DNA of 64,000 nt from a virus (lineage: Duplodnaviria > Heunggongvirae > Uroviricota > Caudoviricetes): IMG/VR virus record IMGVR_UViG_2529292920_000018, positions 1 to 64,000 of that record. One strand, written 5' to 3'. The translations under genes and the position numbers were made by a program. Positions 1 through 45,282 of this stretch are shown one piece after another; the first letter of the stretch is position 1; each line of letters starts with the position of its first letter. The notes beneath the pieces are model-generated. The model saw only the letters and a list, made by a program, of their open reading frames with translations, had not been told where the DNA came from and did no database searches.

Positions 1-495
1 AAAGACGAAAACGTTGGTTTAGGAGAAGGCTCTGCACTGCCCGTTGGTGTGCCCGTTCCGTGGCCCTTAGCAACACCACCAACGGGCTGGCTGAAATGTA
101 ACGGTGCAGCATTTTCTTCTGAAATGTACCCCAATCTGGCAAAAGCCTACCCCACCAATAAATTACCGGATTTACGGGGCGAATTTATTCGTGGCTGGGA
201 TGATGGGCGAGGAATTGATGCGGCACGCGCTTTATTGAGCATTCAAAACGGGATGTTGGAAAAACATCGCCATATTGTTGTAGCTAACGATGGATATGAC
301 ACAAAAGATGAATGGGAGTTGGCTACGATTTTCAAAAAAACATATACACAAGGCAGGGGGCTTGATGCCACAAATACAGGAGGGAGTTTGATTCCATCAC
401 CAACGCTTCATTCACGAGGAAGTATTGGTAACACAGGTGGTAGTGAAACCCGCCCCCGCAATATTGCATTTAACTATATCGTGAGGGCGGCTTAG
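1..495 (+). CDS. Alternative tail-fibre C-terminal (receptor-binding) segment, silent in this orientation
   Basis: Open frame from position 1; first ~85 aa near-identical to the C-terminal part of the fibre at 1111-2562 then divergent; ends ETRPRNIAFNYIVRAA. Confidence 0.6.
   Translation, partial: KDENVGLGEGSALPVGVPVPWPLATPPTGWLKCNGAAFSSEMYPNLAKAYPTNKLPDLRGEFIRGWDDGRGIDAARALLSIQNGMLEKHRHIVVANDGYDTKDEWELATIFKKTYTQGRGLDATNTGGSLIPSPTLHSRGSIGNTGGSETRPRNIAFNYIVRAA
4..29. other. Din-family (gix/pix-like) invertase crossover site, left boundary of invertible tail-fibre segment
   Basis: gacgaaaacgttggtttaggagaagg; inverted copy of the site at 1559-1584; lies at the constant/variable junction (LGLGE) of the fibre. 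Confidence 0.5.
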
Positions 496-501
496 TTATA
501 T

Positions 502-1111
502 TCAACTGGCTGATGCCAGTGGTATTTCCGGCAAGTTGATATCTGGTGCCATGTTTATATCCATTGCGTTCAGCGCGTCTATATAATCCAGCACGGCATT
601 AAGCCGGGTGGTTTCTGCCTGCGTCAACTTCCGCCCGGCCCGCAACTTCAACTGAATCAGACTTATGGAATCCATTGCCGCATCAGCCAGTGACTGGCGC
701 TTGGTTTCTGCCGCTTCTACTGCGGCACGATGTTGTACCTCAGTATCTGTCACCCATTTTTCACCATCCCATTTATCGTATGGTGTTAACGGGGCGATAG
801 TGGTTGTATTTTCGGGTAGTCACCCAGCGCCGTGATTTCTTCGGTGTTTCCCGTGTCAGTGCTATAGACGGTTTCACCACGATGGTCTGGCGCATACTCC
901 CATGAATTTAAATCCTCCGAACGGCGAATAGCATAGCCAGATTTATGTGCGCCTGGGGCATCTAAACAGGAATTAGCCGGAATACCAACACCCACAGCAA
1001 GATATTCAGTTGATTCGGAAATATATTCCCGTGTCTCACCATCATAGTTATAAACGACGATGTTTCCTGCCTGTACGGCATAAGGTCATCATTTAATATC
1101 GCGTTATTCAT
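502..1111 (-). pseudogene. Tail fibre assembly protein (TfaE-like), disrupted by two frameshifts
   Basis: Homology to the intact Tfa at 43090-43683 is split over three reading frames (ORFs 786-995 and 502-753 plus an 11-codon N-terminal stub overlapping the fibre stop). Confidence 0.55.
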
Positions 1112-2562
1112 TATGCGGTTCTCACAATATAATTGAAGGCAATATTGCGTGGGCGGTTTTCATTCCCATCTGAGGATTCCGTTCTGTATTGACTGGTAAA
1201 TCTACCGTTAATTGCACCTTGCCGGACGGCATTATCTGTCGACAACAGACTATCCCCTCTTTTGTCATTTGGCACCAGTACCGTGTTATCCCACGCATCC
1301 CATGACCGAATATTATGATAATGACTTCCTGTTAACCACCCCTGCATGCTTAAGATGCCCCTTCCGGCATCCACCCCGCGCCCATCATCCCAGCCACGGA
1401 TAAACTCACCGCGTAAATCAGGTAATTTTAACGTTGGGTAAACCTTTGCCAGATTTGGGTACATTTCAGAAGAAAATGCTGCACCGTTACATTTCAGCCA
1501 GCCCGTTGGTGGTGTGGCTGAGGGCCATGGAACAGGCACACCAACGGGCAGTGCAGAGCCTTCCCCCAAACCAAGGTAATTGAGGACTTCTTTTATACTG
1601 CCCATAGCGATAATAGCGCGACCAATAGCTGTAAGGGTTGTCAGTGCTGCGCGGTCTGCTCCGGTAAAATAAGGCAACCGATCTGCTGCAGTGGCAAGTC
1701 CTGCCAGAGCAGTGAGCGTGGCATCTGCCGGTTGTTTTCCGTTTGCCAGATCGTATGCAGCCTTGACCGCTTTCGGTGTGGCGGCCAGTATTTCAGACGT
1801 GCTGTTGATGTCACTGCTCAATTGTACGGTGCCTTTTGCCGTCAGCGAGGCAGCAGGCACTCCCGTTATCTGACTCCACGGGTGAGTGTGGCTGACGGGC
1901 GCCTTGCCGGCTGCAAGGTCGTATGCAGCCTTGACCGCCTTCGGCGTGGCAGCCTCAGTTTCTGATTGACTGTCCGTGGCGCTGCTCAGTTGTACGGTGC
2001 CTTTTGCCGTCAGCGAGGCAGCAGGGACTCCCGTTATCTGACTCCACGGGTGAGTGTGGCTGACGGGCGCCTTGCCGGCTGCAAGGTCGTATGCAGCCTT
2101 GACCGCCTTCGGCGTGGCAGCCTCAGTTTCTGATTGACTGTCCGTGGCGCTGCTCAGTTGTACGGTGCCTTTTGCCGTCAGCGAGGCAGCAGGCACTCCC
2201 GTTATCTGACTCCACGGGTGAGTATGGCTGACGGGGGCCTTGCCGGCAGCCAGGTCATATGCAGCCTTGACGGCCTTTGGTGTGGCGGCCAGCGTTTCAG
2301 AGGTGCTGTTGGTGGCACTGCTCAGTTGGGTGAACCCCTTAGCTGTCAGTGTCGCGTCCGGGTGGTTACGGGAACGTACGTGTTCAGCCAGTGACTGTGC
2401 GGCTTCCTCCGTTTTTTTCTTCAGCCATTTCGTCCTGTTTGCCAGTTGCCGGGGGGCTCGATTTGATATCCCGTCTGCACCACCCAGAACCGGATCTGAT
2501 GTCTCCAGTTGATAGATATTTTCTTCCCACTTTTCTGTTTCATTCAGGTTTCCCATAATCAA
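1111..2562 (-). CDS. Tail fibre protein (Mu S / P2 H-like) with invertible C-terminus
   Basis: 483 aa; 56-aa tandem repeats of the phage tail-fibre repeat type; C-terminus ends NRPRNIAFNYIVRTA. Confidence 0.85.
   Translation of the reverse strand: MIMGNLNETEKWEENIYQLETSDPVLGGADGISNRAPRQLANRTKWLKKKTEEAAQSLAEHVRSRNHPDATLTAKGFTQLSSATNSTSETLAATPKAVKAAYDLAAGKAPVSHTHPWSQITGVPAASLTAKGTVQLSSATDSQSETEAATPKAVKAAYDLAAGKAPVSHTHPWSQITGVPAASLTAKGTVQLSSATDSQSETEAATPKAVKAAYDLAAGKAPVSHTHPWSQITGVPAASLTAKGTVQLSSDINSTSEILAATPKAVKAAYDLANGKQPADATLTALAGLATAADRLPYFTGADRAALTTLTAIGRAIIAMGSIKEVLNYLGLGEGSALPVGVPVPWPSATPPTGWLKCNGAAFSSEMYPNLAKVYPTLKLPDLRGEFIRGWDDGRGVDAGRGILSMQGWLTGSHYHNIRSWDAWDNTVLVPNDKRGDSLLSTDNAVRQGAINGRFTSQYRTESSDGNENRPRNIAFNYIVRTA
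1559..1584. other. Din-family invertase crossover site, right boundary of invertible segment
   Basis: ccttcccccaaaccaaggtaattgag; reverse complement shares core ttggtttgggggaagg with site 4-29. Confidence 0.5.
1700..2350. repeat. 168-bp tandem repeat, about 3.5 copies, inside tail fibre gene
   Basis: Motif tcccgttatctgactccacggg recurs at 1861, 2029 and 2197; encodes the 56-aa unit AKGTVQLSSATDSQSETEAATPKAVKAAYDLAAGKAPVSHTHPWSQITGVPAASLT. Confidence 0.8.
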
Positions 2563-3137
2563 CTGCTCCCGTGGTTATAACTGCCATCATGGATGGCGGT
2601 ATTGTTATAGCGAATGGCCACAGACTGATACTCCAGGCTGGCCAGATGGCAGCGGGCCGGTGCAAATGCAGCCAGCGTCTGACGCAGCATCGCGGCCTGA
2701 TCGTTAGTAATGGGCTGTTTCAGAATAACGCGATAAACTGCCCAGGCGGCTGCATCTCCATGAACAAACAGTCCGTTATAGCTGCGATTGCCGTCGTAAC
2801 TGAGACGACCTGTGCCTTCAATCAGATCCACTTCACCAAAGCCAAAACGGCGGATAACTTCCCGGATTGACCACGGCGTCCCTTTATACCGGTGCAGTTC
2901 GATGGCTGCTTTTATAAGCATGCGGCGAACATCGTCCGATTCCGCCAGCTCCCAGCCATCGCCAGACAGTGAGAACTGCTCGCCCAGCCATGGCAGCGCG
3001 GAACTGTCGACGATATCGACGAGAAAGACCATCAGTACGCTCAGGTCGATGTTATCCAGCCGTCCTGCCAGTCTTCCCAGCGTCCTGAGACTGATATCAC
3101 CCTCAAGCGGTGGCGGGAGTTGTAATGGCTCAGTCAT
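2559..3137 (-). CDS. Tail protein, P2 gpI-like (Mu gp48-like)
   Basis: 192 aa; resembles the gpI-like protein at 45279-45890; position between baseplate J and fibre. Confidence 0.65.
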   Translation of the reverse strand: MTEPLQLPPPLEGDISLRTLGRLAGRLDNIDLSVLMVFLVDIVDSSALPWLGEQFSLSGDGWELAESDDVRRMLIKAAIELHRYKGTPWSIREVIRRFGFGEVDLIEGTGRLSYDGNRSYNGLFVHGDAAAWAVYRVILKQPITNDQAAMLRQTLAAFAPARCHLASLEYQSVAIRYNNTAIHDGSYNHGSS

Positions 3138-4233
3138 CAGACACTCCAGTCATGTTAAGAGTGATTGCCGTACAGTTTGCCCATTCGTTTTCTGCCACCA
3201 CCCGCAGTGCCGGTGTCACCAGTTCAACCTGGTACACCCCGGAAACGGACAATGCACTGATAATCTGGCTGGGGACAATATCGCGCCCCAGCGTGGCGGC
3301 ACGTGATGCCACCCAGTTCTGTATGGCGCTGTTAGCGGCATCTTTTACAGACCTGGCATCCTGATCACGATAGATCGTAATCTTGGCTTCAATGGTGTAA
3401 TCCACCTTCACTGGTGTTTTAGCCCGCACTGTATCAGTGAGTGGCCTGACTTTCTCATCAGAGCAGAAACTCTCTACCAGCGTGAGAACACCGCCGTCCG
3501 GCAGACCGGTACTGAGCAGCGGATACAGATCTACGGTCCCGGGAACCGGGGAAAGCACAGCAACATCGACAATGTTGGGATGGGCCTGCATGGCATGAAA
3601 GCGGTATGCGCCACGGCTTCCGGCATTGGTGAATGACTCCGGGGCCAGCCTGATACGCTCCCGGAGCCTGTCATCGTCTTCCTGTTCTGAACCGCCGGAA
3701 CTGGCCGTCAGATTGCTCACCAGCAGGTCGACGTTATCAATCTCATCGAGTAACTGACTGACCTGCGCAGGTTGCCAGCCGTTACCAGCGGTACCGGGTT
3801 CGGTACAGGTGGACGTGACATTGACCAGCAGCAATCCGGCCTTCAGTACCACATCTGTATCGGTGGCAAAAATAACGCTGTCGGAAGCGCTGACGCGGGT
3901 GCCTGCCGGGATCAGCACATCAATGGCCAGTGCCTCATCTACGGAGAACTGGAGCGTGGTAGTGGCAGGCTGCGCGGCAAGACGGTATACACCGACCAGT
4001 TCACCGAGGTAATCAATCATCGGCTCACGGGCAAAGGCGACCAGATTCTGCTTTGCTGCCTCCTGTACCGCAACCCTGACCAGCATTTCGCGATAGGCCC
4101 ACAGATCAATCAGCAGACGTTCTGCCTGTGCCGGGTACAGCGTTTTGCCGGTATCCGCTTCATACTTCGCAATCATTTCTGCCGTGATTTTGTCGGCATC
4201 GCGTTCAATAAAATCGGGTTCTGTCAGCGCCAT
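3130..4233 (-). CDS. Baseplate J-like protein (Mu gp47-like)
   Basis: 367 aa; synteny and resemblance to the J-like protein at 45883-46791. Confidence 0.75.
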   Translation of the reverse strand: MALTEPDFIERDADKITAEMIAKYEADTGKTLYPAQAERLLIDLWAYREMLVRVAVQEAAKQNLVAFAREPMIDYLGELVGVYRLAAQPATTTLQFSVDEALAIDVLIPAGTRVSASDSVIFATDTDVVLKAGLLLVNVTSTCTEPGTAGNGWQPAQVSQLLDEIDNVDLLVSNLTASSGGSEQEDDDRLRERIRLAPESFTNAGSRGAYRFHAMQAHPNIVDVAVLSPVPGTVDLYPLLSTGLPDGGVLTLVESFCSDEKVRPLTDTVRAKTPVKVDYTIEAKITIYRDQDARSVKDAANSAIQNWVASRAATLGRDIVPSQIISALSVSGVYQVELVTPALRVVAENEWANCTAITLNMTGVSDD

Positions 4234-4571
4234 AGCAGCTCCTGAGTCCGGGTCTGTCCGTCTGAGCCTTTCCAGCTCACCCGGAGCGTAAGATGTTCGC
4301 CGTCGACGGCGGGTTTAACTGACATAAGCTGGCAGCGGGGCTCCCAGCGCCGGATGGCATCGACGGATTCGCGCACCACATGCGGAATGGCCCGGTCTAC
4401 AGGCCAGTCGATATAAAGATGCAGATTGCTGCCGAACTCCGGGCGATGCGGGTCGCTGCCGCGGGGAGTCCGCAGGATAATTTGAATCGCCTGCCGGATA
4501 TCATCCAGCCCCCGGACAATTTCGCCGGGAGCCTGCAGGGTCGGTTGCCAGAATACTGAGGTTGTTTTCAT
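4224..4571 (-). CDS. Baseplate protein, GPW/gp25-like (Mu gp46-like)
   Basis: 115 aa; pattern similar to the gpW-like protein at 46796-47143. Confidence 0.7.
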   Translation of the reverse strand: MKTTSVFWQPTLQAPGEIVRGLDDIRQAIQIILRTPRGSDPHRPEFGSNLHLYIDWPVDRAIPHVVRESVDAIRRWEPRCQLMSVKPAVDGEHLTLRVSWKGSDGQTRTQELLWR

Positions 4572-4625
4572 GGGGGCAGTATTGCCCCCGTGCGGGAACG
4601 CTGATATTAAAGGCGTTTAAAAAGC

Positions 4626-5222
4626 TCAGTGGGAGTGGTGGCTGGAGTTTTCGCCATCAGACAACATACTGCCCGTGGCATGGGCATTCCCTTTAATCTC
4701 GATATTGCCATGGATGGTCGCGGTAACACCTTCACCACCAGAACCCGCCATGCCTCCTTCGTAAATCAGCTTACCCCTGACACGCAGATCTCCGGTAAGT
4801 TCGGTTTCCGGTGCGTCAATCGTGGCTTTCTGTGTTTTCAATACCACATCAGCACCACACTCAATGACAATATGCTCAATGCCGCCCCGGATGGTCAGAG
4901 TGTGCGTCTTCCGGTTGTAGCTGTACTCTGCACCATCAGCAAACCGGGTTCCCCGGATATTTTTGTCACTGAACGGTGGTTTATCGACGTCTGAATACAC
5001 CGCGCCCAGAATAACACCATCCTCGCCGTTGGCATCGAGCAGTACCTCAACCTGCTCCCCCACGTCAGGGAGCCAGTAATCTTTGTTATCCTGGGTATTG
5101 CGCTGCAGCACGTTAAGCCAGTTTGTGCGCAGGTTATCGCATTCAGGCAGACGAACGCGGGCCTGAACCCTGTCGGCATCAACGGCACTGACCGTACCGA
5201 CCTGACGAGTGACACCAGTCAT
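4626..5222 (-). CDS. Baseplate assembly protein V-like (spike)
   Basis: 198 aa; synteny; resembles the V-like protein at 47140-47775. Confidence 0.7.
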   Translation of the reverse strand: MTGVTRQVGTVSAVDADRVQARVRLPECDNLRTNWLNVLQRNTQDNKDYWLPDVGEQVEVLLDANGEDGVILGAVYSDVDKPPFSDKNIRGTRFADGAEYSYNRKTHTLTIRGGIEHIVIECGADVVLKTQKATIDAPETELTGDLRVRGKLIYEGGMAGSGGEGVTATIHGNIEIKGNAHATGSMLSDGENSSHHSH

Positions 5223-6373
5223 TTTTTCTTCTCCTTAATCACCGTCGATGTACTGCCATCCGGGTGATAAACCGTGAGTTTCTGAGTTTTTTGTTTTTTC
5301 CCTCTTGTGACTGGCCCCCGTGCCACTTCCAGCTCTGTGGTGTAGCCGCTGTTACGGTCAAACGCATGGCGGGCAGTGGTTATGAGCCATGGCCCGGATA
5401 ACTGCCCAAAACCCACCAGTTCAATTTTGTTGCCTGCTGTCAGTTGAGGTGTTCCCGTCAGCGTCAGGGAGCCGTTCTGCTGGTATTCGTTATGTCTGGC
5501 CAGTGCTGAATCCGCTTTAATCCGGGCACTGTCCGGGTCGCTGACGCGGCTGTTAACTTTAAGTGAGTCAGCGCTGGTAACCTTACCACCTTTGAGCTTT
5601 TTGTCGCTTTCACGGGTACCACCATCAGCTTCGTAGACGATCAGTTTTTTACTGCTGCTTTTCTGGTGTTTTACCTTTGCAGATTTATAGACCCGGTTGA
5701 TGGTGTCACGCAGGGAAAAGCGGGCCACATCCTGCGGTTTTAACTGCCTGACCGGCTCCTGACTGCGCAGTGTGGCCAGATGAGAAAAAATCAGCTGGTC
5801 ACTGACCACTTTCACTGCATAACCATACTCGCTGGCCAGCCGGCGCAGAAAACCCACGTCGGTTTCAGCATACTGGGTCACCCGGTCGATTCTGATGGAC
5901 TCAATGCTGCCCACCAGTTTCAGTCGGTGCTTTCTGGCAATCCGCCCCGCAACAGCTGCCAGCGTGGTGTTCTCAAAACCACGACTGGTTTTAGTCCGCA
6001 GGGCACTGTTAACCGAGGTGGCCACCCCACGGATAGAAACAACGGAAGCGGGCGAACTCACTTCGATCTCGTCTATAGAGAACGTACCGCAGGACAGCAG
6101 CTTCTCGCCCTGATAGCCCATTTTCAGCGTCAGCGTGTCACCCTTGCCCGGATACCATTTATCCAGCCAGCGGCCATCGGTGTCGTCCAGCTCCACCTCA
6201 ATGGTATCGGACTCATTTTTGATGTTATCGCTCCAGGTCACACGGGTGACATAAGGCGCGATATCAGAGGTGATGTTTTTCTGCAGATACCACAAAGTGA
6301 ACACCGGTGTCAGCACATCGCTGACGCCGGTTAACGCTGATGTGACTTGCGCAGTGCTGTTTATCTCAGCCAT
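5219..6373 (-). CDS. Tail protein, gpD-like (Mu P / gp44-like)
   Basis: 384 aa; N-terminal 230 aa align by eye with the truncated D-like ORF at 35994-36698. Confidence 0.7.
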   Translation of the reverse strand: MAEINSTAQVTSALTGVSDVLTPVFTLWYLQKNITSDIAPYVTRVTWSDNIKNESDTIEVELDDTDGRWLDKWYPGKGDTLTLKMGYQGEKLLSCGTFSIDEIEVSSPASVVSIRGVATSVNSALRTKTSRGFENTTLAAVAGRIARKHRLKLVGSIESIRIDRVTQYAETDVGFLRRLASEYGYAVKVVSDQLIFSHLATLRSQEPVRQLKPQDVARFSLRDTINRVYKSAKVKHQKSSSKKLIVYEADGGTRESDKKLKGGKVTSADSLKVNSRVSDPDSARIKADSALARHNEYQQNGSLTLTGTPQLTAGNKIELVGFGQLSGPWLITTARHAFDRNSGYTTELEVARGPVTRGKKQKTQKLTVYHPDGSTSTVIKEKKK

Positions 6374-6576
6374 GGGGCAATATCCTCTTCTGTACGGGCT
6401 TCTTCAGCCTCAATCACCGGGATCAGTAACAACAGCCCGGAGGGCAGCACCGGCGTGATGGCCACGTGCGGATTGGCGGCAATAATCCGGGGATAGCCCA
6501 GCGGGTCACCGTAGTACTGCCATGCCAGCGAATCCCAGCGCTCTCCGTCACGGGTAACATGTTCAAGAAACATCAC
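6361..6576 (-). CDS. Tail protein X-like (LysM-like)
   Basis: 71 aa; motif WQYYGD...IIAANP resembles the P2 gpX-like protein at 50497-50700. Confidence 0.5.
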   Translation of the reverse strand: MMFLEHVTRDGERWDSLAWQYYGDPLGYPRIIAANPHVAITPVLPSGLLLLIPVIEAEEARTEEDIAPWLR

Positions 6577-7457
6577 ACACTCCTCGTCAGTATTCTGGCG
6601 GCCATTGCACTTAATCCCGGAGACATGCGGTTGAATGCTGTGCCGGCGGCGTTAAGCTGCCCGGAAACGGTATCCAGAGCACCTGCAATATTTCTTTTGT
6701 CCACACCACTCAGCGCAGACTGTGCCTGCTGTACATACGTGGCTGCTTCGCTGGCTGTTCTGGCCAGACTGATGGCATCGGGCATGGATTCAGAGAGTGC
6801 GTTAAACGCCGGAACACTTTTCCCCAGAGCCCCGGAGATATTACCCAGTCCGCTCATCAGCCCCGGCACACGGGTCAGTGCGACAACGGGGTTATCCTTC
6901 ATTTTCTGTGTCACCCGAACGGCGCTGATAGTGGTCTGGAGTACAGACTGCGCCTGTTTCGCATAGTTGACGCCGTTGCGGATGAACTGCGCCACCCCTG
7001 AAGGTGAAGGTATGGCACCGGAGACCGCCCCGACACCCGGGAGCTTCGTGCGTATTGCCGGTGGTTGCAGAGGATTTTTCGGGTCACCGGTGTATTCCCG
7101 GAGAGACACGGTGGCACTGACAGCCAGCACGTTGCCGGTACTGTCAGTCTGCTCGCTGGTTGCAGTCACATCGGTAATCACGAACCAGCCGCGATAGTCA
7201 CCGTTGCCGAAGACCAGCGCCAGTGCCTGATGGGCTTTCATGGCTGTTCGCAGTCTCGCCAGCTCCACATCGGGTACACAATAATGCTGATGGAAAACCA
7301 GAGTTATCTGGATTTCGTCCAGCCTGTCGCCGACGAACTGCAGGCCAGGCTTACCCCCGATGCGGGCATGCTCCGCATAATCGACGCCGAACGTGGCCTC
7401 GAAGCCGTCCCAGTAGGTAATCAGCTCAAACTCAATATCACCCAGTACGGCAAACAT
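6573..7457 (-). CDS. DNA circularisation protein N-like (gpU-like N-terminal domain)
   Basis: 294 aa; N-terminus resembles the gpU-like protein at 36698-37177; located after the tape measure. Confidence 0.6.
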   Translation of the reverse strand: MFAVLGDIEFELITYWDGFEATFGVDYAEHARIGGKPGLQFVGDRLDEIQITLVFHQHYCVPDVELARLRTAMKAHQALALVFGNGDYRGWFVITDVTATSEQTDSTGNVLAVSATVSLREYTGDPKNPLQPPAIRTKLPGVGAVSGAIPSPSGVAQFIRNGVNYAKQAQSVLQTTISAVRVTQKMKDNPVVALTRVPGLMSGLGNISGALGKSVPAFNALSESMPDAISLARTASEAATYVQQAQSALSGVDKRNIAGALDTVSGQLNAAGTAFNRMSPGLSAMAARILTRSV

Positions 7458-10408: not shown

Positions 10409-10483
10409 AGTGGTTAACCTCCGGGGAAGGTGAAAAGACGTGAGGGGATAACGCAGAACAGCCGCTACTGGCGGCTGTCTGTA

Positions 10484-35051: not shown

Positions 35052-35052
35052 T

Positions 35053-35502: not shown

Positions 35503-35863
35503 GGGGCCGGAACTCCTGGTGGAACTGGCACAGCATACCTCTGAGACCGTTCGCGAGATTATTGATATTGAGCCCGAAGTTGCCGACCAGATTGGTCAGG
35601 CCGTCGCGAACCGAATGATGCAGGTCTGGGGCGGGCAAAACGTTTATTTCCCGATGGGCATGGTATGGAAGGTCAGTCAGCGCGACCGGGAAATCTTCAG
35701 GGAGTTTAACGGACGCAACCACCACGAACTGGCCCGCAAATTTGGTGTTTCGCTTCAGTGGGTCTACAGCGTGGTTAAGCGGGTAAGAAAAGAAGAACTG
35801 GATCGGATGCAGGGCAAGCTATTTGCTGATGAACCCGATGCAGATACGGAGAAAAAAGAGTAA
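35474..35863 (+). CDS. mor: Mor/C-family transcription activator
   Basis: 129 aa; C-terminal HTH region REIFREFNGRNHHELARKFGVSLQWVYSVVKRV. Confidence 0.7.
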   Translation: MSDLNQFRSKGPELLVELAQHTSETVREIIDIEPEVADQIGQAVANRMMQVWGGQNVYFPMGMVWKVSQRDREIFREFNGRNHHELARKFGVSLQWVYSVVKRVRKEELDRMQGKLFADEPDADTEKKE

Positions 35864-36697
<834 letters not shown>

Positions 36698-36698
<1 letters not shown>

Positions 36699-37177
36699 TA
36701 TCCCGCCCCCGTCATACCCGTGAATTTAGTCGCCATACTGCCAGCCTTACCGATGAGCGATTCCGCCTGTTTACCGATATCGCCATAAAGCGCGGCCAGT
36801 GATTCATCAACGCGGGTGAGCGACAGCGTAAAATCAATTTTCCGGGGTGTGCCATCTGCAAAGAAAATACTCCCTGTTTCACTCACCTTGCTGATGACAT
36901 ACATGCCGTAAATCATGCCGGTGCCATCCAGCAACGGCCACGCCCGCCCCTCCTCTGCCATCAGCCTGAGCGTGGTCATCGTCAGCTTGCCGCCGGTCAG
37001 TTCGGGATAAAGCACACCGGCAAGCGTGATGTTTTCCTCACCCACACCGAGAAACTGAAAAGCGTCCCGTTTACCGATACGGGAATTTGACGGCCAGCGA
37101 TAATCTGATTCACGCTGCATGGTCTGGTGTGGCAGCGTCTGGCGCATAAAAACAAACATACCTAACGCGAGCATCAT
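36698..37177 (-). CDS. U: Tail protein gpU-like
   Basis: 159 aa; P2 order between T and D. Confidence 0.75.
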
Positions 37178-37191
37178 TTTTCGTCACCTCC

Positions 37192-39639
37192 TTAACCGTC
37201 ATGCATCATGCTGGCACGGGCGCGCGCACGTTTATCCCGCTCGTATTTTTCGAGCGCATCCTGTAACTGGCGGTCGAGCTGTGTCCCCGGCGCAGTACCA
37301 CCCGTCAGGCTGATGTGATATTCGTTTTTACTCTGGTCTACATAAGAGCGGCCAGCCGGTGCCGTGACCGGCTGATAAGCCTGATAACCTGCATAAGAGC
37401 TGGTCGCCGGAATATAACCACCGCTGCCATACGTGGCGGCTTGAGTTCTGGCGGCGGTCTGGTCAAGTGTGTCTGACTCTTTGTTGATAACACCGAGTTT
37501 TTCCAGTACCCAGTCAATACCACTGCGCAGTTTGTTGAACGCATTAAGCGGCAGCATCAGCGCGTCAGCCAGTGCCTGCCCAAACATGACGCCCGTGTCA
37601 CGGCAACGGTTCAGGGTGTCCTGGGTGGCTTTGACCGGGGCAATCAGGTTTTTAAACCACTGCCACGCGGCCTGTAACTTTTCACCCAGCCAGTCAAACA
37701 CCGGTTTAAGTGGCGTGAACAGTTCCCCCACCGGCGCAAATGCCGCTTTCAGCCCTTCCACCACACCGCCAAAGAATGCGCTGACAGGCTCCCAGTATTT
37801 ACGGATAAGCAACGCCCCGGCGACAATTGCAGCCACCACGGCCACAACCGGCCAGCTAATCGCCCCGATGGCGGTTATAACAGCACTGCCAACCGTCGTG
37901 AAGATTGCCCCCATTGCGCCTGCTGCCGCGATGATGGCATTGATGCCGGTGATAACCGGCCAGGCTACGAGGCCAATGGCACCGATGACACCAATCAGTG
38001 CCAGTGCACCACCGACAATGATGCCGATGGTTGACGCCAGTGATTTGTTTTTCTGGATCCAGCCGTCGAGTTTTAACACATACTTTGTGGCCGTCTGCGT
38101 GAGATTACGCAGTGCGCCTTCCTGCTGGTCAAACAGGTCAGTCCCCACCGCCTCATAAGCGGACTGAAACTCCTTAAAGTCACCGCCGAGGTTGTCCTGC
38201 ATGATATTTACCAGCTCTGCGGTCTTCCCGTCTGAGGCTTTAAACGCAGCGGTCAGTTTGTCCAGCTTTCCGGTTGAGGCGGCAGTCATCAGCACAGCGG
38301 CGGCTGAGCTGGCCTCCTCCCCGAAAATGGTTTTCATGTATTCAGCCTGCTGGGCAGTACCGAGCCGGTTTTTCTCAAAACTGGCCTGCATTTCTTTCAG
38401 AATGGTAAATATTGGCCGGGTGTTTCCCTTGCTGTCTGAGGTTTTCACTCCAAGCTCTTTGAGTGCATCCCATGCTTTTCCCGTCGGTGCCTGCAGGCGG
38501 CTTAACACGGCACGGCTTCCCGTCCCCGCCATTGAGCCTGTGATTTTTGCATCATGCAGCGCCCCGACCATTGCGGCAGTTTCTTCAATGCTGACACCGG
38601 CATTTTTTGCCACAGGTGCGGCATAGGTCAGCGCATCGCTCATGCCGTCAAAATCGGCGGCGGTTTTGTTCATCGTCATGGAGAGAACATCCCCGATATG
38701 AGCGACCTTATCGTTTGAAAGCTGAAAGGCGGATTTCATCCCCATCAGCAGGGCGGCGTTTTCTTCCATCGTGCGGCGGTTCGCCAGCGCCATATTCAGC
38801 GTGACCGGCGTTGCCGCCTGAATGGCATCAACATCCCCACCCGCTTTCGCGATGATTATCTGTGCACCGGCCGCATCATCCGCCGAGGCGGCGGTATTGT
38901 CGCCGAGCTGGCGCGCCTGTTTGCGTAGTGCGGTCATTTCGGCGGAGTCTTTTGCCACTCCGAGCACGGCCTGCAATTCTGAGTTTTTCTGCGCAAACTC
39001 ATAACCGGGCATCAGCAACTTAACTCCGGTCATCGTTCCCGCCGCCGCAATCCCCACACCGGCAGCGCCTACTGAGGCCATATTTCCGGCCAGTTCCTTT
39101 CCGGCCTGATAACGCTGTTTGACTGCGTTAAGTTTTGCCTGTTGCGCACTGACACGCGCCAGCGCGTCGCGCTGACGGTTAAGCTGTGCGGTGGTTTCAC
39201 TGATACGGTTTTTCAGTCCCTGCTCATCATGTGCAAGATTGCGGGTATTAATTCCCACAGCGGCCAGTTCCCGCTGCTGGCGTTTAACGGAATCTGTCAG
39301 GCGGTTATATTTCGCCTGTAAGTCCTCCGCCGCACGCTTTGCGGATTCCAGCACTTTCGCCTGACCACGGGTCGGACGTTCGGTGTTTTTAAACTGTGTG
39401 GCAAGGGCTTCGGCCTCCTGCCGTGCCTTTTCAAGTGCATGACCAGTCACGGCGAGCTGTGCACTGGTCTTGCGGAATCCCTCAATACGGGATGCCTGAC
39501 CGTTCAGCTCGCGCAGTGATTTTTGTGTTTCCCGGATATCCCCCGACAGCGATTTGCTCGCTGTGCGGATGGATTTAAACGGACGGGATGCCTGGTCAAC
39601 AGCCCTGAGCAATACCTGTAATTTTACATTGTTACTCAT
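37192..39639 (-). CDS. T: Tail tape measure protein (gpT-like)
   Basis: 815 aa; follows the E/E' chaperone. Confidence 0.85.
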   Translation of the reverse strand: MSNNVKLQVLLRAVDQASRPFKSIRTASKSLSGDIRETQKSLRELNGQASRIEGFRKTSAQLAVTGHALEKARQEAEALATQFKNTERPTRGQAKVLESAKRAAEDLQAKYNRLTDSVKRQQRELAAVGINTRNLAHDEQGLKNRISETTAQLNRQRDALARVSAQQAKLNAVKQRYQAGKELAGNMASVGAAGVGIAAAGTMTGVKLLMPGYEFAQKNSELQAVLGVAKDSAEMTALRKQARQLGDNTAASADDAAGAQIIIAKAGGDVDAIQAATPVTLNMALANRRTMEENAALLMGMKSAFQLSNDKVAHIGDVLSMTMNKTAADFDGMSDALTYAAPVAKNAGVSIEETAAMVGALHDAKITGSMAGTGSRAVLSRLQAPTGKAWDALKELGVKTSDSKGNTRPIFTILKEMQASFEKNRLGTAQQAEYMKTIFGEEASSAAAVLMTAASTGKLDKLTAAFKASDGKTAELVNIMQDNLGGDFKEFQSAYEAVGTDLFDQQEGALRNLTQTATKYVLKLDGWIQKNKSLASTIGIIVGGALALIGVIGAIGLVAWPVITGINAIIAAAGAMGAIFTTVGSAVITAIGAISWPVVAVVAAIVAGALLIRKYWEPVSAFFGGVVEGLKAAFAPVGELFTPLKPVFDWLGEKLQAAWQWFKNLIAPVKATQDTLNRCRDTGVMFGQALADALMLPLNAFNKLRSGIDWVLEKLGVINKESDTLDQTAARTQAATYGSGGYIPATSSYAGYQAYQPVTAPAGRSYVDQSKNEYHISLTGGTAPGTQLDRQLQDALEKYERDKRARARASMMHDG

Positions 39640-40059
39640 TCGTGTTTCCGCTTCGCCGGAGCGCCTTTTCGTGCCATGTGATGAGTTCGGTCAGGCTCAT
39701 GGGATACAGTTCTGATGGCGGCCAGTGAAATATCACTGCCACATCCGCCATCAGGTCATCGACCGAGAGATTTTTCGGAAACGTCACTGCACCGAGTTCG
39801 GCGACAAAAAACCGACCACCTTACCGGCCAGCGCCACAAGGTCAGGCAGTTCCAGCGCGGCGACTTCCTGCTCGGTCAGCATCGGTGCCGTCATGCGCGG
39901 CAGCACTTTAATCAGTGCATCGACTTCGGAGTTCGCGACTGCAGCCAGACTGACACCGCGCAGCGTCCCGGCATTGGGTTTCATCAGCGTGACCTGTTCG
40001 ATAACCTGCTCACCACGTTTGACCGGATTGTCCAGGGTAATGACGTTTTCTTTGTTCAT
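39632..40059 (-). CDS. E: Tail assembly chaperone E and E+E' (programmed -1 frameshift)
   Basis: E is ORF 39784-40059; slippery T7G (ggttttttg) at 39805-39813; the -1 frame runs to a stop at 39632 overlapping the T start. Confidence 0.7.
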
Positions 40060-40115
40060 GGTTTTCTCACTTCTGAATCGGGGTTAACCGGTCAGCCAGG
40101 CTGACCGGATGAAAA

Positions 40116-40634
40116 TCACAGGCCGATATTGCGGCGGTGTTGCTCCAGCCGGTCGACGCCGTTCACCTTCTCAATCATGTTGATGGTGTCGATTTCGACC
40201 AGCTCCTTACCGTCTATCGTCAGCCGGAAATAGGTGCAGACCACGGAGATTTTCGACTCGGTGTCTTCTCCCTGTTTACCCTCGCCGGTGTCGATTTCTT
40301 TCTGACGTCCACGCATGACCACTTCAACGGCCACCGTTTCGCCGGTATCGTCACGCTGGTAAGAGCCTGCAAAACGAATCGGCACAGCATCCACACCGGT
40401 TGCGGCGTAAAGCTCCCAGATAACCGAATCCGGGAAACCACCGAGCGACCACTCCATTGACAGCGCATCGTCATCAAGGCCGAGGTCTACCGGTGCGCTG
40501 CCGTTCATCCCCGCACCGCGATAGTTTTCGAGCTTACGGGTCAGTTTTGGCAGCGTGACGGACTTCGCGACGCCCTGATAGCTGTAGCCGTTCAGAAAGA
40601 CGTTCATTAACTTGAGTTTGCGCGGCATTGCCAT
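40116..40634 (-). CDS. FII: Tail tube protein (FII-like)
   Basis: 172 aa; P2 order. Confidence 0.85.
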   Translation of the reverse strand: MAMPRKLKLMNVFLNGYSYQGVAKSVTLPKLTRKLENYRGAGMNGSAPVDLGLDDDALSMEWSLGGFPDSVIWELYAATGVDAVPIRFAGSYQRDDTGETVAVEVVMRGRQKEIDTGEGKQGEDTESKISVVCTYFRLTIDGKELVEIDTINMIEKVNGVDRLEQHRRNIGL

Positions 40635-40646
40635 CGGTCAGGCTCC

Positions 40647-41837
40647 TTAATTGCTGTTAACCGAGGTGACCAGATTTGCCAGGTATTTATCAGTAATACG
40701 CTGGCGCAGGGTCAGGTTTTCAAGAGGAGGCACCGGTGTATAGTCGTAGTCGATATACAGTTTTCCGGCCTTGAGGGTTTCCGCATCGTTGGATTCTTCG
40801 CTGAACCAGCAGGTCGCATCCACGATATAGCCGTTTGTTTTCAGCTCACGGAATTTGGCATTGATGCCGTCAACGATGTCGCGAATCAGCGTTGCGGTGA
40901 TGGGCTTGTCCACCGCCCACATGTGCGCCTCAGCCATCGTGTCGGCCAGCACCTGCGCGGTGCGGGTGTAGTTTTCAAAGAGGAACAGCGGGTCATCAGA
41001 GCAGGTACGGTTACCCCAGAATCGGAAACCGTCGCGGCGAATCAGCGTAGTGACACCTGACTCGTTAAGCAGGTCAGCATCGGTGCCGGACTCCTGCAAA
41101 TCCCAGAATACAGATGCGCTGATGCCGGTAACACCGTTTACCCCGACGTTGGACAGCGTTTTATGCCAGCCCTGCTCCTGGTCGATTTTAGCGCGCAGAC
41201 CCAGCGCACGGGCGGTGGCATACGCGGTGGCGGTGGTACTGGTGACCGTATCCCATGCGAGGAAATCCGGCCAGATGACCATCAGCTCACGCTGGCTGAA
41301 ATTCTGGCGGTAGGCTTTCACCTCGGAAATGGTCTTACAGCCCCATGCGCTGATATATCCGAAAGCACGCAGCTTCTGACAGACTGATGCCAGTGCAACA
41401 GCCACCTCTTTGGTATCCAGTCCCGGCACGCCGAGAATACGCGGTTTAACACCGGTTACCGACTCCGCCGCCAGCAGGGCTTTCAGTCCGGTGTACTGAC
41501 CGTTTTCGTCGGTGGTGCCGATGATATTGGAAACGGTCTGCGCGAGTTTCGTTTCCTCGTCGTCGCCGGTGCCGTCTTCCACACGTACGACAACGGTGAC
41601 CGGTTTTGACTGGTCGGCGATGGCCTGCAACGATGCCGCCAGCGTGCCTTTTTTACCGGCCTTTGCAATTGCACTCTGCACATTGGTAATCAGCACCGGT
41701 TTATTGAGGGGGAAGGTTTCCGCATCCGCATCGCTGGCCGTGCAGACCATGCCGACAATGGCAGTGGATACGGTGGAAATGACGCGGGTGCCGTCGTTAA
41801 TCTCCAGCACCTGCACGCCGTGATGATAGTCACTCAT
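40647..41837 (-). CDS. FI: Tail sheath protein (FI-like)
   Basis: 396 aa; P2 order. Confidence 0.85.
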   Translation of the reverse strand: MSDYHHGVQVLEINDGTRVISTVSTAIVGMVCTASDADAETFPLNKPVLITNVQSAIAKAGKKGTLAASLQAIADQSKPVTVVVRVEDGTGDDEETKLAQTVSNIIGTTDENGQYTGLKALLAAESVTGVKPRILGVPGLDTKEVAVALASVCQKLRAFGYISAWGCKTISEVKAYRQNFSQRELMVIWPDFLAWDTVTSTTATAYATARALGLRAKIDQEQGWHKTLSNVGVNGVTGISASVFWDLQESGTDADLLNESGVTTLIRRDGFRFWGNRTCSDDPLFLFENYTRTAQVLADTMAEAHMWAVDKPITATLIRDIVDGINAKFRELKTNGYIVDATCWFSEESNDAETLKAGKLYIDYDYTPVPPLENLTLRQRITDKYLANLVTSVNSN

Positions 41838-41896: not shown

Positions 41897-42496
41897 CTAT
41901 TTGTCCCGGTTGGCTAAGGGATGACACAATTTATTCTTTGTCGCTGATGAGGGAAATTTTTTATAGAGCGTGGACAGGCCAATATCAAAAATCAGTGCCA
42001 CGCGTTGACGTGACTCCCCTGCAGCCAGCAAACGCCCGGCCTGCTCCCACTCACTCGCGGTGAGTTTCGGTCGTCTGCCACCAATACGACCTTTGGCTCT
42101 GGCCGCTTCCAGTCCGGCGCGTGTCCGCTCGACAATGAGTTCTCGCTCCATTTCAGCCAGGGCACCCATCACATGAAAGAAAAAACGCCCCATCGGTGTG
42201 CTGGTATCAATAGCATCCGTCAGGCTGCGAAAATTAACGCCGCGTTCGCGCAGTTCCTCAACCAGAATGACCAGATGCCGCATACTACGCCCCAGCCGGT
42301 CCAGCTTCCAGACCACCAGTGTATCCCCCTCCGATAATGTCCTGAGCAGTTTTTTCAGTCCCGGTCGGTCGGACTTCGTGCCGCTGATTTTATCCTCAAA
42401 AATCAGCTCACATCCTGCGCACTCCAGCGCGTTACGCTGCAATTCCGTATTCTGGTCATTTGTTGACACGCGTACATAGCCAATAAGCATGAGCAT
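41897..42496 (-). CDS. Serine DNA invertase (Gin/Pin/Hin/Cin family)
   Basis: N-terminal catalytic motif IGYVRVSTNDQ and C-terminal HTH; adjacent to the invertible fibre segment. Confidence 0.9.
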   Translation of the reverse strand: MLMLIGYVRVSTNDQNTELQRNALECAGCELIFEDKISGTKSDRPGLKKLLRTLSEGDTLVVWKLDRLGRSMRHLVILVEELRERGVNFRSLTDAIDTSTPMGRFFFHVMGALAEMERELIVERTRAGLEAARAKGRIGGRRPKLTASEWEQAGRLLAAGESRQRVALIFDIGLSTLYKKFPSSATKNKLCHPLANRDK

Positions 42497-42547: not shown

Positions 42548-42573
42548 TTCTTAAACGTTGGTTTGGGAGAAGG
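42548..42573. other. Din-family invertase crossover site, left boundary of P2-type invertible segment
   Basis: ttcttaaacgttggtttgggagaagg; core is the inverted copy of the site at 44441-44468. Confidence 0.55.
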
Positions 42574-43090
42574 TGCTCCAGCTATTGGCGTTCCGTTCTT
42601 CTGGCCGTCCGCAGCAATGCCAGATACCGTAATCGATAGCTGGTCCAGCATGGTGTTTTTGAAGTTCAACGGCGCGAAATTCTCTGCCACTGATTACCCT
42701 GTGCTGGCGAAAGTGTTTCCGGCGCTGGCATTACCTGACGCACGCGGTGATTTCATTCGTATCTGGGATGACGGGCGCGGGATTGATGTCGGACGTACCC
42801 TACTTTCAGGGCAATCACACACAATTATGGATCATGCGCACAATATGGAATTGTGGACGGGGGACGGGCTTGCCGCAGGAAGTGCACGGGAAGGAGTAAA
42901 CCCAGGAATACTGGCTACATATGGTGACGGGGGAATAGTTAAAACGGACGAACCCGGTCTTAGGGTGCCTTCCTCACTACGAGCTCTTAGCTCTCGTAGT
43001 GTTAAACGTTATGGTGAAATTAGTGGAAATGTAGGTACAGAAACCCGTCCACGAAATATTGCATTTAACTTTCTGGTGAGGGCTAAATAA
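42553..43090 (+). CDS. Alternative tail-fibre C-terminal segment, silent in this orientation
   Basis: Begins at the LGLGE crossover; contains DDGRGID and ends ETRPRNIAFNFLVRAK, like the Mu-like fibre tips. Confidence 0.65.
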
Positions 43091-43683
43091 TGAAACCTGT
43101 TTTTGATGAAAATGGGCTGGCTACAGTACCGGGTAATATGCGTTGTTTTTATTATGATGCTGAAACATCTGAGTATACGGGCTGGTCTGATGAATATATT
43201 AATACTGGTGTAAGTATGCCCGACTGTTCCACTGGTATTGACCCTGGCGAATACATTCCGGGGAAAGTGGCAGTATTTACGGGTAAGGGATGGAGCCATG
43301 AAGAAGACCACCGCAATGAGACTGTTTACTCAATCGAAAATGGCGCAGCTGTTACAGTGGATTATATCGGTGCCATCAAAGACGGTTATGTCACGCTTTC
43401 ACCGTTAACGCCATACGATAAATGGGATGGTGAGAAATGGGTGACGGATACCGAGGCACAGCATAGCGCCGCACTAGACGCGGCAGAAGTAAAGCGCCAG
43501 TCGCTGATTGATGCTGCAATGGCTTCCATCAGTCTGATTCAACTGAAATTACAGGCCGGGCGGAAGCTGACGCAGCCAGAAAACACCCGACTTAACGCTG
43601 TGCTGGATTATATTGACGCGGTGACGGCAACAGATACCAGCACCGCACCGGATGTCATCTGGCCTGAACTGCCGGAGGCGTAG
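43090..43683 (+). CDS. Tail fibre assembly protein (TfaE-like), partner of the alternative fibre tip
   Basis: 197 aa; C-terminus TSTAPDVIWPELP. Confidence 0.8.
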   Translation: MKPVFDENGLATVPGNMRCFYYDAETSEYTGWSDEYINTGVSMPDCSTGIDPGEYIPGKVAVFTGKGWSHEEDHRNETVYSIENGAAVTVDYIGAIKDGYVTLSPLTPYDKWDGEKWVTDTEAQHSAALDAAEVKRQSLIDAAMASISLIQLKLQAGRKLTQPENTRLNAVLDYIDAVTATDTSTAPDVIWPELPEA

Positions 43684-44095
43684 GCCATTCAATATCTGGC
43701 GCACCGGAAGTATCGACCAGTTCCAGTGCGTCCAGATAATCCAGCCACAAATTATATTGCACCAGTTCCTCACCTTTCAGGCGACCAATCGCCGCTTTAC
43801 CAGGCCATTGCTTACTGTTTATGTATTCGTTGACCTGATTAATCAATTGCTGCTTTTTCAGTTCGGCTGCGGCAATTTGTTCCTCATGAGTTGGCGGTGG
43901 AATATCAATCCATGCAGGCATTCCGTCGATGACACCTCTGTATTTTCCTTCTGGTGCTTCCTTCATAAATTCGGCAGCAACAGTGTCGTCAATTTCGATT
44001 CCATCATCGGGCCATTCGCCGGATTCCTGATAAGCGATTTTAAGCTCCACAGGGAAAAACGCATTTTTATCGGCACTGAAAATATATTTCTGCAT
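43655..44095 (-). CDS. G: Tail fibre assembly protein (gpG-like), partner of the expressed fibre tip
   Basis: 146 aa; C-terminus TSGAPDIEWPTPP; immediately after the H-like gene. Confidence 0.75.
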   Translation of the reverse strand: MQKYIFSADKNAFFPVELKIAYQESGEWPDDGIEIDDTVAAEFMKEAPEGKYRGVIDGMPAWIDIPPPTHEEQIAAAELKKQQLINQVNEYINSKQWPGKAAIGRLKGEELVQYNLWLDYLDALELVDTSGAPDIEWPTPPAVQAR

Positions 44096-44097
44096 TT

Positions 44098-45282
44098 CTA
44101 CCGTCCTATCGAAATATAACTGAATCTGTATTGCTGTGAGATATCACTGGTTGCCACACGCCACGCTGAATTACTGATATGTTCAAAATTTACAGACAAA
44201 ACCTGCGGGGCAGGAATCGACGGGTCTGACTGAACGGCATCAGACATAACACTGACTGAAACCATCGGCTGATTAGGGAATGGTATAGGGAAGTGTCCAC
44301 TGATAAAGCGGGTCGTGTTTCCTGCAAAAGTGCCAAACTGAACAATATATCCACCTGGTAGCCTGAACCATCCCGAACCAGAAGCGAATGCTCCCATATC
44401 CGGTATCTGATTATCTCCTGTGCCCACATTCCGTTTTGCCGCTTCTCCCAAACCAAGGTATGCGAGAAGACCGGCAACATCCTTTCCACTCAAATGAGTC
44501 AGCGTATTGTCCAGCGGTTGTTTACCTGCCAGCGCATTGTTAATGGTAGTGCTGAATTTCGGGTCATTGTTAATGGCCGCGGCAATTTCTTTCAGTGTGT
44601 CCAGCGTGGCTGGCGCGCCGTTAATCAGAGCGGTAATAGCAGCCTGAACAAACTCAGTGGTCGCAATCCGCGTGGTGTTATTTCCTGCGGCAGGCGTCGG
44701 CGCTTTTGGTTCTCCGGTAAATGTCGGATTATGTTTCTGTGCATACTGGGTATGAGGATCCTGTGCGGCAATGTGGTTTCTCATCTGGTCATCCACATAC
44801 AGCTTTAATTCCAGGACTTTATCATCCACGTATTTACGGGTCGCCAGTACCACCGACGGGTCGATTTTCAGCGTGATGGCTTCGGTATTCGTGACAACCA
44901 GAATCATGCGGATAGTCTGGGTACGACCACTGCCTTCCTGCAACTGCGGTTTGTACGTTTCCGGGCAGTTCGCCACCGCAATGAGTACGCCTTCATCATC
45001 ATAAAGCCCAATCTCACGGATCCAGAATCCGCCCTCGTTCTCAGGGATGATTTGCTCCGCAATAATCTGGCTCTGGTTGTTCGGGTCAACACTCAGAAGA
45101 TTCAGCGGCGCGATGCGTTTCTGGTTAATCAGTTTTGTCTGTGCCGGGTCTGGTGTCGGCAAGACACCATTCGCATCACCAACGGCCATTTGCGTCAGAT
45201 TCAGCTTACTGCCGAGCATCGTCGCGTTAGCCAGCCGTGCTGCGCCCTGATTAGTCAGAATGGCGTAGTATTTCACTGTCAT
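44098..45282 (-). CDS. H: Tail fibre protein (gpH-like) with invertible C-terminus
   Basis: 394 aa; conserved H-like N-terminus; crossover site at codons LAYLGLGE. Confidence 0.85.
   Translation of the reverse strand: MTVKYYAILTNQGAARLANATMLGSKLNLTQMAVGDANGVLPTPDPAQTKLINQKRIAPLNLLSVDPNNQSQIIAEQIIPENEGGFWIREIGLYDDEGVLIAVANCPETYKPQLQEGSGRTQTIRMILVVTNTEAITLKIDPSVVLATRKYVDDKVLELKLYVDDQMRNHIAAQDPHTQYAQKHNPTFTGEPKAPTPAAGNNTTRIATTEFVQAAITALINGAPATLDTLKEIAAAINNDPKFSTTINNALAGKQPLDNTLTHLSGKDVAGLLAYLGLGEAAKRNVGTGDNQIPDMGAFASGSGWFRLPGGYIVQFGTFAGNTTRFISGHFPIPFPNQPMVSVSVMSDAVQSDPSIPAPQVLSVNFEHISNSAWRVATSDISQQYRFSYISIGR
44441..44468. other. Din-family invertase crossover site, right boundary of P2-type invertible segment
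   Basis: gcttctcccaaaccaaggtatgcgagaa; reverse complement shares core ttggtttgggagaag with site 42548-42573. Confidence 0.55.

Follow-up and report, generated by a model that had tools for sequence, protein, structure and literature searches.

Introduction

Among the invertible systems described so far, the P segment of e14 with its invertase Pin and the invertible segments of Escherichia coli EC958, a strain of sequence type 131 (ST131), are among the closest known kinds to the locus reported here. In EC958 about half of the PacBio reads are flipped at prophage Phi1, contigs of alternate orientation exist for Phi2 and Phi4, and 26-bp sites with the centre TT have been described for Phi2 (PMC4134206). 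The G segment of phage Mu with its invertase Gin is built alike: it shares with our locus a Gin-like serine invertase, inverted 26-bp sites of 12-2-12 architecture, two alternative fibre C-termini together with their assembly genes, and, in the P2-like element, an invertase gene beside one of the sites. Here we analyse a stretch of 64,000 nucleotides (nt) of a Caudoviricetes record in IMG/VR (IMGVR_UViG_2529292920_000018), in the following called the window. It holds a Mu-like and a P2-like prophage, each with one Din-type invertible segment, and in this respect agrees with an earlier proposal made from the letters of the window alone (the sequence-only reading). Our analysis makes it highly probable that these are two separate, conventional fibre switches of the Din family (Gin/Pin/Cin-type) which became neighbours through nesting of one prophage in the other, and that a long inversion between them is allowed but rare.

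Four crossover sites bound two invertible segments

The window was scanned with the pattern TTGGTTTRGGRGAAGG, whereby up to 2 mismatches were tolerated and the background was taken from 100 shuffles. Four matches are found, at 14-29 (+), 1559-1574 (-), 42558-42573 (+) and 44441-44456 (-, with one mismatch). The shuffles lead to an expectation of 0.10 matches, and none of the 100 got to four. The sequence-only reading had named the same four Din-type sites, with coordinates within 2 bp of ours. The number four is a count within the window only; close relatives of the Mu-like phage carry 3-4 sites per region.

The full 26-bp sites are given here as variable half (12 bp), 2-bp centre and outside half (12 bp). 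Site A (2-27, +) reads TTCTCCTAAACC AA CGTTTTCGTCTT and is the distal site of the Mu-like segment, probably the invertase-proximal one. Site B (1561-1586, -) reads TTCCCCCAAACC AA GGTAATTGAGGA and is located within the Mu-like fibre gene. Site C (42546-42571, +) reads TTCTCCCAAACC AA CGTTTAAGAAAA and adjoins the P2-like invertase gene, while site D (44443-44468, -) reads TTCTCCCAAACC AA GGTATGCGAGAA and is located within the P2-like gene H. All four sites show the 12-2-12 architecture, and the centre dinucleotide is AA in each of them. The pairs A/B and C/D are inverted, have identical centres and bound one segment each. Sites A and C point one way, B and D the other way, so that A/D and B/C are mutually inverted as well; the full 26-bp reading confirms these orientations and inverted pairs, which had been proposed before. 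From centre to centre, A and D are 44,441 bp apart, B and C 40,985 bp.

Moreover, the centre is found at one common codon position in all four sites, and its distance to the stop codon is 2 modulo 3 throughout. According to the translation, joining at the site would put any of the four fibre tips (A-D, named after the adjoining site) in frame with either fibre gene. The outside halves of sites A and C are non-coding and lie beside invertase genes, for site A as judged from relatives. The outside half of site B, TCCTCAATTACC, is identical to that of the EC958 Phi2 site (PMC4134206).

The P2-like switch has flipped in the lineage of the window

A P2-like prophage takes up the window from position 36026 onward and shares 98.4% identity with the KL53 prophage over 10.5 kb. 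The gene order Q P O N M L X ... V W J I H ... FI FII E T U D, supported by Pfam matches, places it with the P2-like phages (Peduoviridae). Its switch consists, from left to right, of the invertase gene, site C, tip C, two assembly genes, tip D, site D and the constant part of H.

The invertase gene (41897..42490, -; start MLIGYVRVSTNDQ) encodes a serine DNA invertase of 197 amino acids (aa), and its start codon lies 56 bp from site C. The product matches Mu Gin (PDB 3UJ3) over residues 1-182 with E = 1.7e-94 and contains the motif YVRVSTNDQ with the catalytic serine. Together with the Pfam domains Resolvase and HTH_7 this assigns it to the Din family, an assignment which holds for the P2-like element only. 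An NCBIfam scan of the same protein gave no invertase-specific family above the cut-off.

The expressed fibre gene H (44098..45282, -; 394 aa) is composed of a constant part (44469-45282) and tip D (44098-44442). Tip C (42572..43090, +) is the silent alternative C-terminus of this fibre. Between the tips are the tail-fibre assembly genes for tip C (43090..43683, +; 197 aa) and for tip D (43655..44095, -; 146 aa). Both segments of the window thus follow the same plan, i.e. alternative in-frame fibre C-termini with Caudo_TAP assembly genes (43090-43683 and 43655-44095 here, and a frameshifted one at 497-1111 in the Mu-like segment).

A sister assembly (L005, NJJB01000093.1) is 100% identical to the window except for a reversed C-D segment, and there is an overlap of 15 bp at the cores of the sites. 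Sites C and D are the breakpoints of this local flip. Hence the P2-like switch has flipped within the lineage of the window.

The Mu-like prophage carries a second switch

A transposable prophage of the BcepMu-like kind occupies positions 1-36025 of the window. Over 23 kb it shows 98.8-99% identity to a prophage that 461 complete E. coli genomes carry, ST131 strains included. The gene content combines a P2-type tail and a Mu-type head (DUF935 portal) with Mor, GemA, Gam, a MuB-like ATPase and a DDE transposase, and Pfam matches are found for Mor, GemA, Phage_Mu_Gam, rve and AAA_22. A transposable phage of the BcepMu/phiE255 type is indicated by the transposase set, by a right end in ...CA and by unrelated insertion sites elsewhere; relatives are found in four distinct insertion contexts (L007-L009 and strain JJ2434).

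The segment consists, from left to right, of site A, tip A, an assembly gene, tip B, site B and the constant part of the fibre. Tip A (28..495, +) is a silent alternative fibre C-terminus of the tail-collar type and is in frame with either fibre. The expressed fibre gene (1111..2556, -; 481 aa) is composed of a constant part (1587-2556) and tip B (1111-1560). The identical 481-aa protein is encoded by 10 other contigs, at differing chromosomal positions; among the protein records the exact form with TTG start is absent, and the form with ATG start occurs in other strains only. The constant part contains tandem direct repeats of ~168 bp (1736-2328, -) with 89% identity between adjacent copies, which encode 'TAKGTVQLSSAT...ATPKAVKAAYD' units (Phage_fibre_2).

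The window corresponds to positions 3-64002 of contig AIEZ01000020.1 (assembly GCA_000249135.2), in which site A is located at the contig end. As the window begins 2 bp inside the contig, the Mu-like invertase and everything else left of site A fall outside of it. The first 29 nt of the window, including 13 nt of outside flank, have an exact match in one IMG/VR contig only (L012), where an invertase gene follows within ~70 bp beyond the matching site. In relatives with the identical 481-aa fibre, the gene next to the segment encodes an invertase of 190 aa that has 76% identity with the P2-like one, and the invertase directly adjoins the corresponding segment in L007, JJ2434 and L012. Judged from these relatives and the 13 nt of flank, the Mu-like invertase is probably encoded just left of the window edge.

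The assembly break coincides exactly with site A, and one sister contig also breaks inside the P2-like segment. Contig breaks at such segments are typical of mixed orientations or of repeats in the reads. Relatives of the Mu-like prophage can have more than two sites. Three sites and three alternative tips within one invertible region are found in L007 (10983-13059) and L002 (5153-7196), and four crossover sites in L012 (542-3162). Those relatives with 3-4 sites are small multiple-inversion systems.

Nesting brings the two switches together

The two prophages join at 36025/36026, inside the P2 gene D. The right end of the Mu-like prophage (...CA) is position 36025, where the identity to the JJ2434 prophage ends exactly, and the P2-like similarity begins at 36026. 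Gene D (35994..36698, -) is cut to 234 aa by the insertion, compared to an intact D of 1164 bp in KL53, and exactly this truncated product is present in 3 assemblies; carriers of the junction include SRR094159. The P2-like prophage is defective through the loss of intact D. It is this insertion into gene D that places the two fibre switches ~42 kb apart. Neither the insertion nor the contig end at site A had been noticed in the sequence-only reading.

Positions 2559..36025 hold the rest of the BcepMu-like prophage with P2-type tail, Mu-type head and transposition genes. The P2-like tail genes U, T, E/E', FII and FI follow at 36698..41837 (-), and the remaining P2-like prophage at 45279..64000, with baseplate, lysis, head, terminase and portal genes as well as replication gene A, runs off the window. 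A shared origin of the nested arrangement and the position of the Mu-like prophage in ST131, which is near the P2 attachment region, was considered and ruled out: the JJ2434 copy is an independent insertion (aroA/ycaL).

Compatibility of the sites across the prophages

The near-identical variable halves, the AA centres and the ~76% identity of the invertases suggest that either enzyme should bind all four sites. Din invertases act in trans on sites of other prophages, as PinQ does on e14 (PMC12529663), and trans action has been proposed for Phi1/Phi4 of EC958 (PMC4134206). The role of the centre dinucleotide in partner choice is a subject of the Cin work to which the latter paper refers (cited in PMC4134206). 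Based on the site sequences, invertase exchange A x D or B x C would be chemically allowed and would give in-frame fibres. An inversion between the prophages is hence plausible, though rare.

The products of such events can be predicted. An A x D exchange would create the junctions GCCGGTCTTCTCGCATACCTT joined to GGTTTAGGAGAAGGCTCTGCACTG and AAAGACGAAAACGTT joined to GGTTTGGGAGAAGCGGCAAAACGG, a B x C exchange the junctions AAGAAGTCCTCAATTACCTT joined to GGTTTGGGAGAAGGTGCTCCAGC and TTTTCTTAAACGTT joined to GGTTTGGGGGAAGGCTCTGCACTG. At the predicted chimeric junctions, the P2 fibre would continue into tip A as ...CTTCTCGCATACCTT followed by GGTTTAGGAGAAGGCTCTGC, the Mu fibre into tip C as ...GTCCTCAATTACCTT followed by GGTTTGGGAGAAGGTGCTCC.

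Search for long inversions in the lineage and in databases

A comparison with related strains, which the sequence-only reading had suggested as a check, gave no sign of the long inversion: the three assemblies with the Mu-like prophage in gene D are collinear where they overlap, and the only difference is the local C-D flip. In IMG/VR no exact match was found for the 34-nt junction k-mers of both B x C products and of the P2 fibre joined to tip A. The fourth k-mer (site-A outside half joined to tip D) does occur there, in a related Mu-like phage which naturally carries the cassette, and is therefore no inversion product.

The chimeric fibres were searched as well. For the P2 fibre with tip A, the nucleotide search leads to 24 complete genomes at only ~90% identity. 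P2-type fibres of 435 aa with tip A are common natural alleles, 96-98% identical but never 100%, and since the combination is a common natural allele it is uninformative as a sign of recent exchange. For the Mu fibre with tip C there is no match at ≥80% coverage.

A long inversion leaves a structural signature that consists of one segment between two fibre genes and another between two invertase genes. Among 5,426 complete genomes, none reaches 80% coverage of a query in which the Mu-like fibre side is joined to the P2-like fibre side. The sole case in this set is E. coli strain 4/0 (NZ_CP023849.1), with 66% coverage of the joined-fibre query in one place. A segment flanked by the fibre genes of two P2-like prophages was found in none of ~2,200 genomes. 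In the literature available to us, our search for inter-prophage Din inversions returned none, with reports of local flips and trans action only.

A 43,647-bp inversion in strain 4/0

Strain 4/0 (L013, L014) carries a different P2-like prophage with TT-centred sites. Its chromosome shows a clean reciprocal inversion with one end at the P2-like fibre site and the other at the site which, in the ST131 Mu-like prophage, is next to the invertase. At the first junction, the Mu-like baseplate and fibre genes face the P2-like H-I-J-W-V...capsid block across one segment. At the second, 43.6 kb away, another segment lies between the invertase genes of the P2-like and the Mu-like prophage, whereby the protein accession of the Mu-like invertase is identical to that of JJ2434. 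Beyond this gene follow aroA, serC, ycaP, ycaO, focA, pflB, pflA, dmsCBA and the int end of the P2-like prophage, all of them reversed compared to JJ2434. The site centres at 957,766/7 and 1,001,412/3 define an inverted stretch of 43,647 bp, and the P2-like prophage is split in two by it.

The four flanks agree with their parents up to the centre. The P2 fibre side matches the intact prophage of JBEHAAB-19-0176 over 3,114 bp with 0 mismatches, and the P2 segment with the invertase side matches the same prophage over 2,769 bp with 2 mismatches. The Mu-like side is 100% identical to many ST131 genomes over 4,492 bp, and the Mu-like invertase side is identical to JJ2434 over 833 bp. The P2 halves meet directly at the centre dinucleotide, and the parental P2 fibre junction predicted from them is found with 100% identity in two other genomes. 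Starting at the centre, the exchanged tips (b and R) agree in every one of the first 124 bp; hence the resolution of the crossover point is limited to the stretch between the centre and +124 bp.

We favour an invertase as the maker of this inversion. A doubtful but possible alternative is homologous recombination within the 124-bp identity, or a misassembly, in which case strain 4/0 would be silent on long inversions by Din enzymes. The identity of tips b and R next to the centre would allow for the former, a 1.2-kb inverted repeat common to both loci and located near the sites could confuse an assembler, and the case consists of one genome only. However, both reciprocal junctions are present and the four flanks are parental-exact up to the centre. 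The 1.2-kb repeat (98.4% identity), a target about ten times larger, was not the point of exchange. Had the exchange taken place in that repeat, tip b would now be found with the Mu-like invertase and tip R with the P2 fibre, i.e. both tips with their former partners, but the reverse is observed. A misassembly, in turn, would require that the assembler had mis-joined precisely at two 124-bp repeats separated by 43.6 kb.

The case resembles the window in several respects: a P2-like prophage is combined with an ST131-type BcepMu-like prophage, the sites are of the TT-centre type, the span is ~43.6 kb, and the geometry is the same in that the fibre site of one element is paired with the invertase-proximal site of the other. 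It differs in that its prophages are separate, with ~20 kb of core genes from dmsA to aroA between them, and have the 124-bp identity by the exchanged sites; the window has nested prophages, cross-pairs with nothing in common but the site cores, and no visible inversion.

How often would the long inversion occur

The idea that a Din invertase recombines the sites of the two prophages at a detectable rate in the strain of the window, resulting in a mixed population of collinear and 41-44 kb inverted forms, is in our view rather unlikely. The sites themselves would be suited for it with their identical centres, near-identical variable halves and common phase. Moreover, both elements are found in cis inside 45 kb, the invertase system of the P2-like prophage is active, invertases are documented to act in trans from one prophage on another (PMC12529663, PMC4134206), and a conservative 43.6-kb inversion of such type exists in 4/0. 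The contig break exactly at site A is also what one would expect if the reads had more than one continuation, but an ordinary local flip explains a break at an invertible segment equally well. Natural Din sites are spaced 1-4 kb apart. Wild-type invertases work only in the invertasome, in which both sites and a Fis-bound enhancer meet at one branch of supercoiled DNA (PMC3798978). Based on this geometry and the natural spacing, sites at a distance of 40 kb should be disfavoured and an inversion of 41-44 kb much less efficient. Further points against a detectable rate are the absence of an inverted junction from the three lineage assemblies and from IMG/VR, and the yield of one case in 5,426 complete genomes and of none in the ~2,200 of the P2 x P2 screen. 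Whole-genome inversion scans of E. coli with Mu-like and P2-like switches, by deep sequencing of the enteropathogenic (EPEC) strain E2348/69 and by PacBio reads of EC958, likewise reported local flips only (PMC4272514, PMC4134206).

The sequence-only reading had also considered homologous recombination between similar fibre tips. We regard a RecA-dependent inversion of the region by way of fibre-tip or assembly-gene sequences as very improbable, and this part of the proposal is not upheld. A substrate exists in principle, as the assembly genes share an inverted stretch (498-792 vs 43402-43695). However, its 295 bp at 81% identity are the best similarity across the two prophages, and the longest exact runs common to both are 23 bp inverted and 16 bp direct. 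The minimal processing segment of E. coli RecBCD/RecA is ~23-27 bp, and the 23-bp run is at or below it. The divergence of 19% would also trigger anti-recombination by mismatch repair. Furthermore, the far better substrate in 4/0 (1.2 kb, 98.4%, inverted) is present yet unused.

That the four matches are conserved coding motifs (LGLGE) without recombination function is barely credible. All four sites do lie in fibre-tip frames encoding (Y)LGLGE, but C and D are the exact flip breakpoints between otherwise 100% identical assemblies, B has the outside half of an inverting EC958 site (PMC4134206), and the outside halves of A and C are non-coding beside invertase genes, with the 12-2-12 architecture in all four.

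Several observations weigh against our interpretation of two conventional switches with a rare long inversion between them. The presence of the Mu-like invertase rests on 13 nt of flank and on relatives, and no A-B flip is seen in the assemblies of the window's lineage. The assembly gene at 497..1111 (-), the only one of the Mu-like segment, is disrupted by two indels: it is 99.4% identical to the L007 copy with 2 gap openings, and the latter is an intact Caudo_TAP gene of 203 aa. The Mu-like prophage may thus be decaying, or the indels may be errors of the draft assembly. A Fis-dependent enhancer in the 5' part of the invertase gene is putative: the site and the invertase 5' region align with the gin region (79% mean column identity, four sequences), but coding constraint alone could suffice for this. 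Finally, the 124-bp identity in 4/0 has no comparable counterpart in the window, and 4/0 is therefore no proof that bare 26-bp sites suffice over 40 kb.

Proposed mechanism and consequences

In the arrangement of two separate switches which we prefer, the Mu-like switch would be made up of sites A and B, a segment of ~1.56 kb and an invertase just off the left edge. The P2-like switch would be made up of the invertase at 41897-42490, sites C and D and a segment of ~1.9 kb. Both would have become neighbours when the Mu-like phage transposed into the P2-like gene D at 36025/36026. Each invertase would flip its own segment and thereby fuse the constant part of the fibre to one of two tips, leading to a change in host range. 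Much more rarely than these local flips, an inversion A x D (44.4 kb) or B x C (41.0 kb) could swap fibre tips between the phages. Either long inversion would set the ends of the Mu-like prophage in direct orientation. Of the inter-prophage inversion by an invertase, as originally proposed, the possibility stands with the inverted pairs, the AA centres, the common phase and the 4/0 precedent; the event itself is unseen in the lineage of the window.

If A x D happened, the P2 fibre would obtain tip A, a combination that exists naturally, and tip D would be placed beside the Mu-like invertase. If B x C happened, the Mu-like fibre would obtain tip C. In both cases transposition of the Mu-like prophage would presumably be disabled until reversal.

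As a tentative generalisation, Din invertases might be able to recombine compatible sites of co-resident prophages tens of kb apart, with swapping of tips and splitting of prophages as a result and a route for cassette sharing as a consequence. If so, a B x C event followed by A x D would be expected to exchange the whole tip cassettes with the gene order restored. This would be a route within the cell for the sharing of fibre cassettes between Mu-like and P2-like phages, for which the pair in the window would be an ideal natural substrate. Given cross-reacting enzymes, modules for host range could be traded inside a lysogen without homologous recombination, a reversible 40-kb inversion would toggle a prophage between a competent and a disabled layout, and a phage enzyme could flip the core chromosome that two prophages enclose. 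As the inversion in 4/0 indicates, at least one complete genome does contain such an arrangement, so that the idea can be tested. Without cross-reacting enzymes, the window is a well-annotated example of two known systems.

Comparison with known systems

The tip cassette of the window is found in other phages. L023 (IMGVR_UViG_638341085_000008, 10710-13195), a phage of the same Mu-like family, contains a cassette of tip C, two assembly genes and tip D with 92-93% identity to the one which the P2-like prophage has in the window. After this cassette comes an invertase whose adjacent half-site equals that of site A. A true Mu-type prophage with a gp45-gp48 baseplate (L018, GCA_001265975.1 JHSM01000008.1, 5177-7407) has a fibre gene and the same cassette at its end, including a 100% identical 197-aa assembly protein; no invertase comes after it, and host genes follow directly after tip D. 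In 4/0, the P2-like prophage and the ST131 Mu-like segment have 1.2 kb in common at ~98.5%. These three cases of shared cassettes agree with the idea, current for a long time, that unrelated phages exchange fibre modules.

Compared to the G segment of Mu, the window differs in the centre of the sites (GA in gixR, AA here), in the length of the segments (3 kb in Mu, 1.56 and 1.9 kb here) and in the phages which carry them, as these are P2-like and BcepMu-like and not Mu itself. The Mu-like prophage of the window is of the same phage type as EC958 Phi2 and the JJ2434 prophage, with which it shares 98.8% identity over 23 kb, the outside half TCCTCAATTACC and the TT/AA centre. In EC958 the neighbouring P2-like Phi1 is located ~45 kb away and has the centre TC in contrast to TT in Phi2, whereas in the window both prophages have AA/TT centres and are nested. 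P2-like and Mu-like prophages are also ~45 kb apart and in equal relative orientation in typical ST131 strains (JJ2434 L015, L002). There, the TC versus TT centres should block cross-recombination.

More than two compatible sites for one class of enzyme are also known from Min of p15B and from the three-repeat 'shufflon-like' locus of EPEC E2348/69 (PMC4272514). In those loci all sites are within a few kb of a single element, whereas in the window the site pairs are 41-44 kb apart and belong to two prophages. Taken together, the components of the window are ordinary, already-described phage switches, while their nested arrangement with four compatible sites is unusual.

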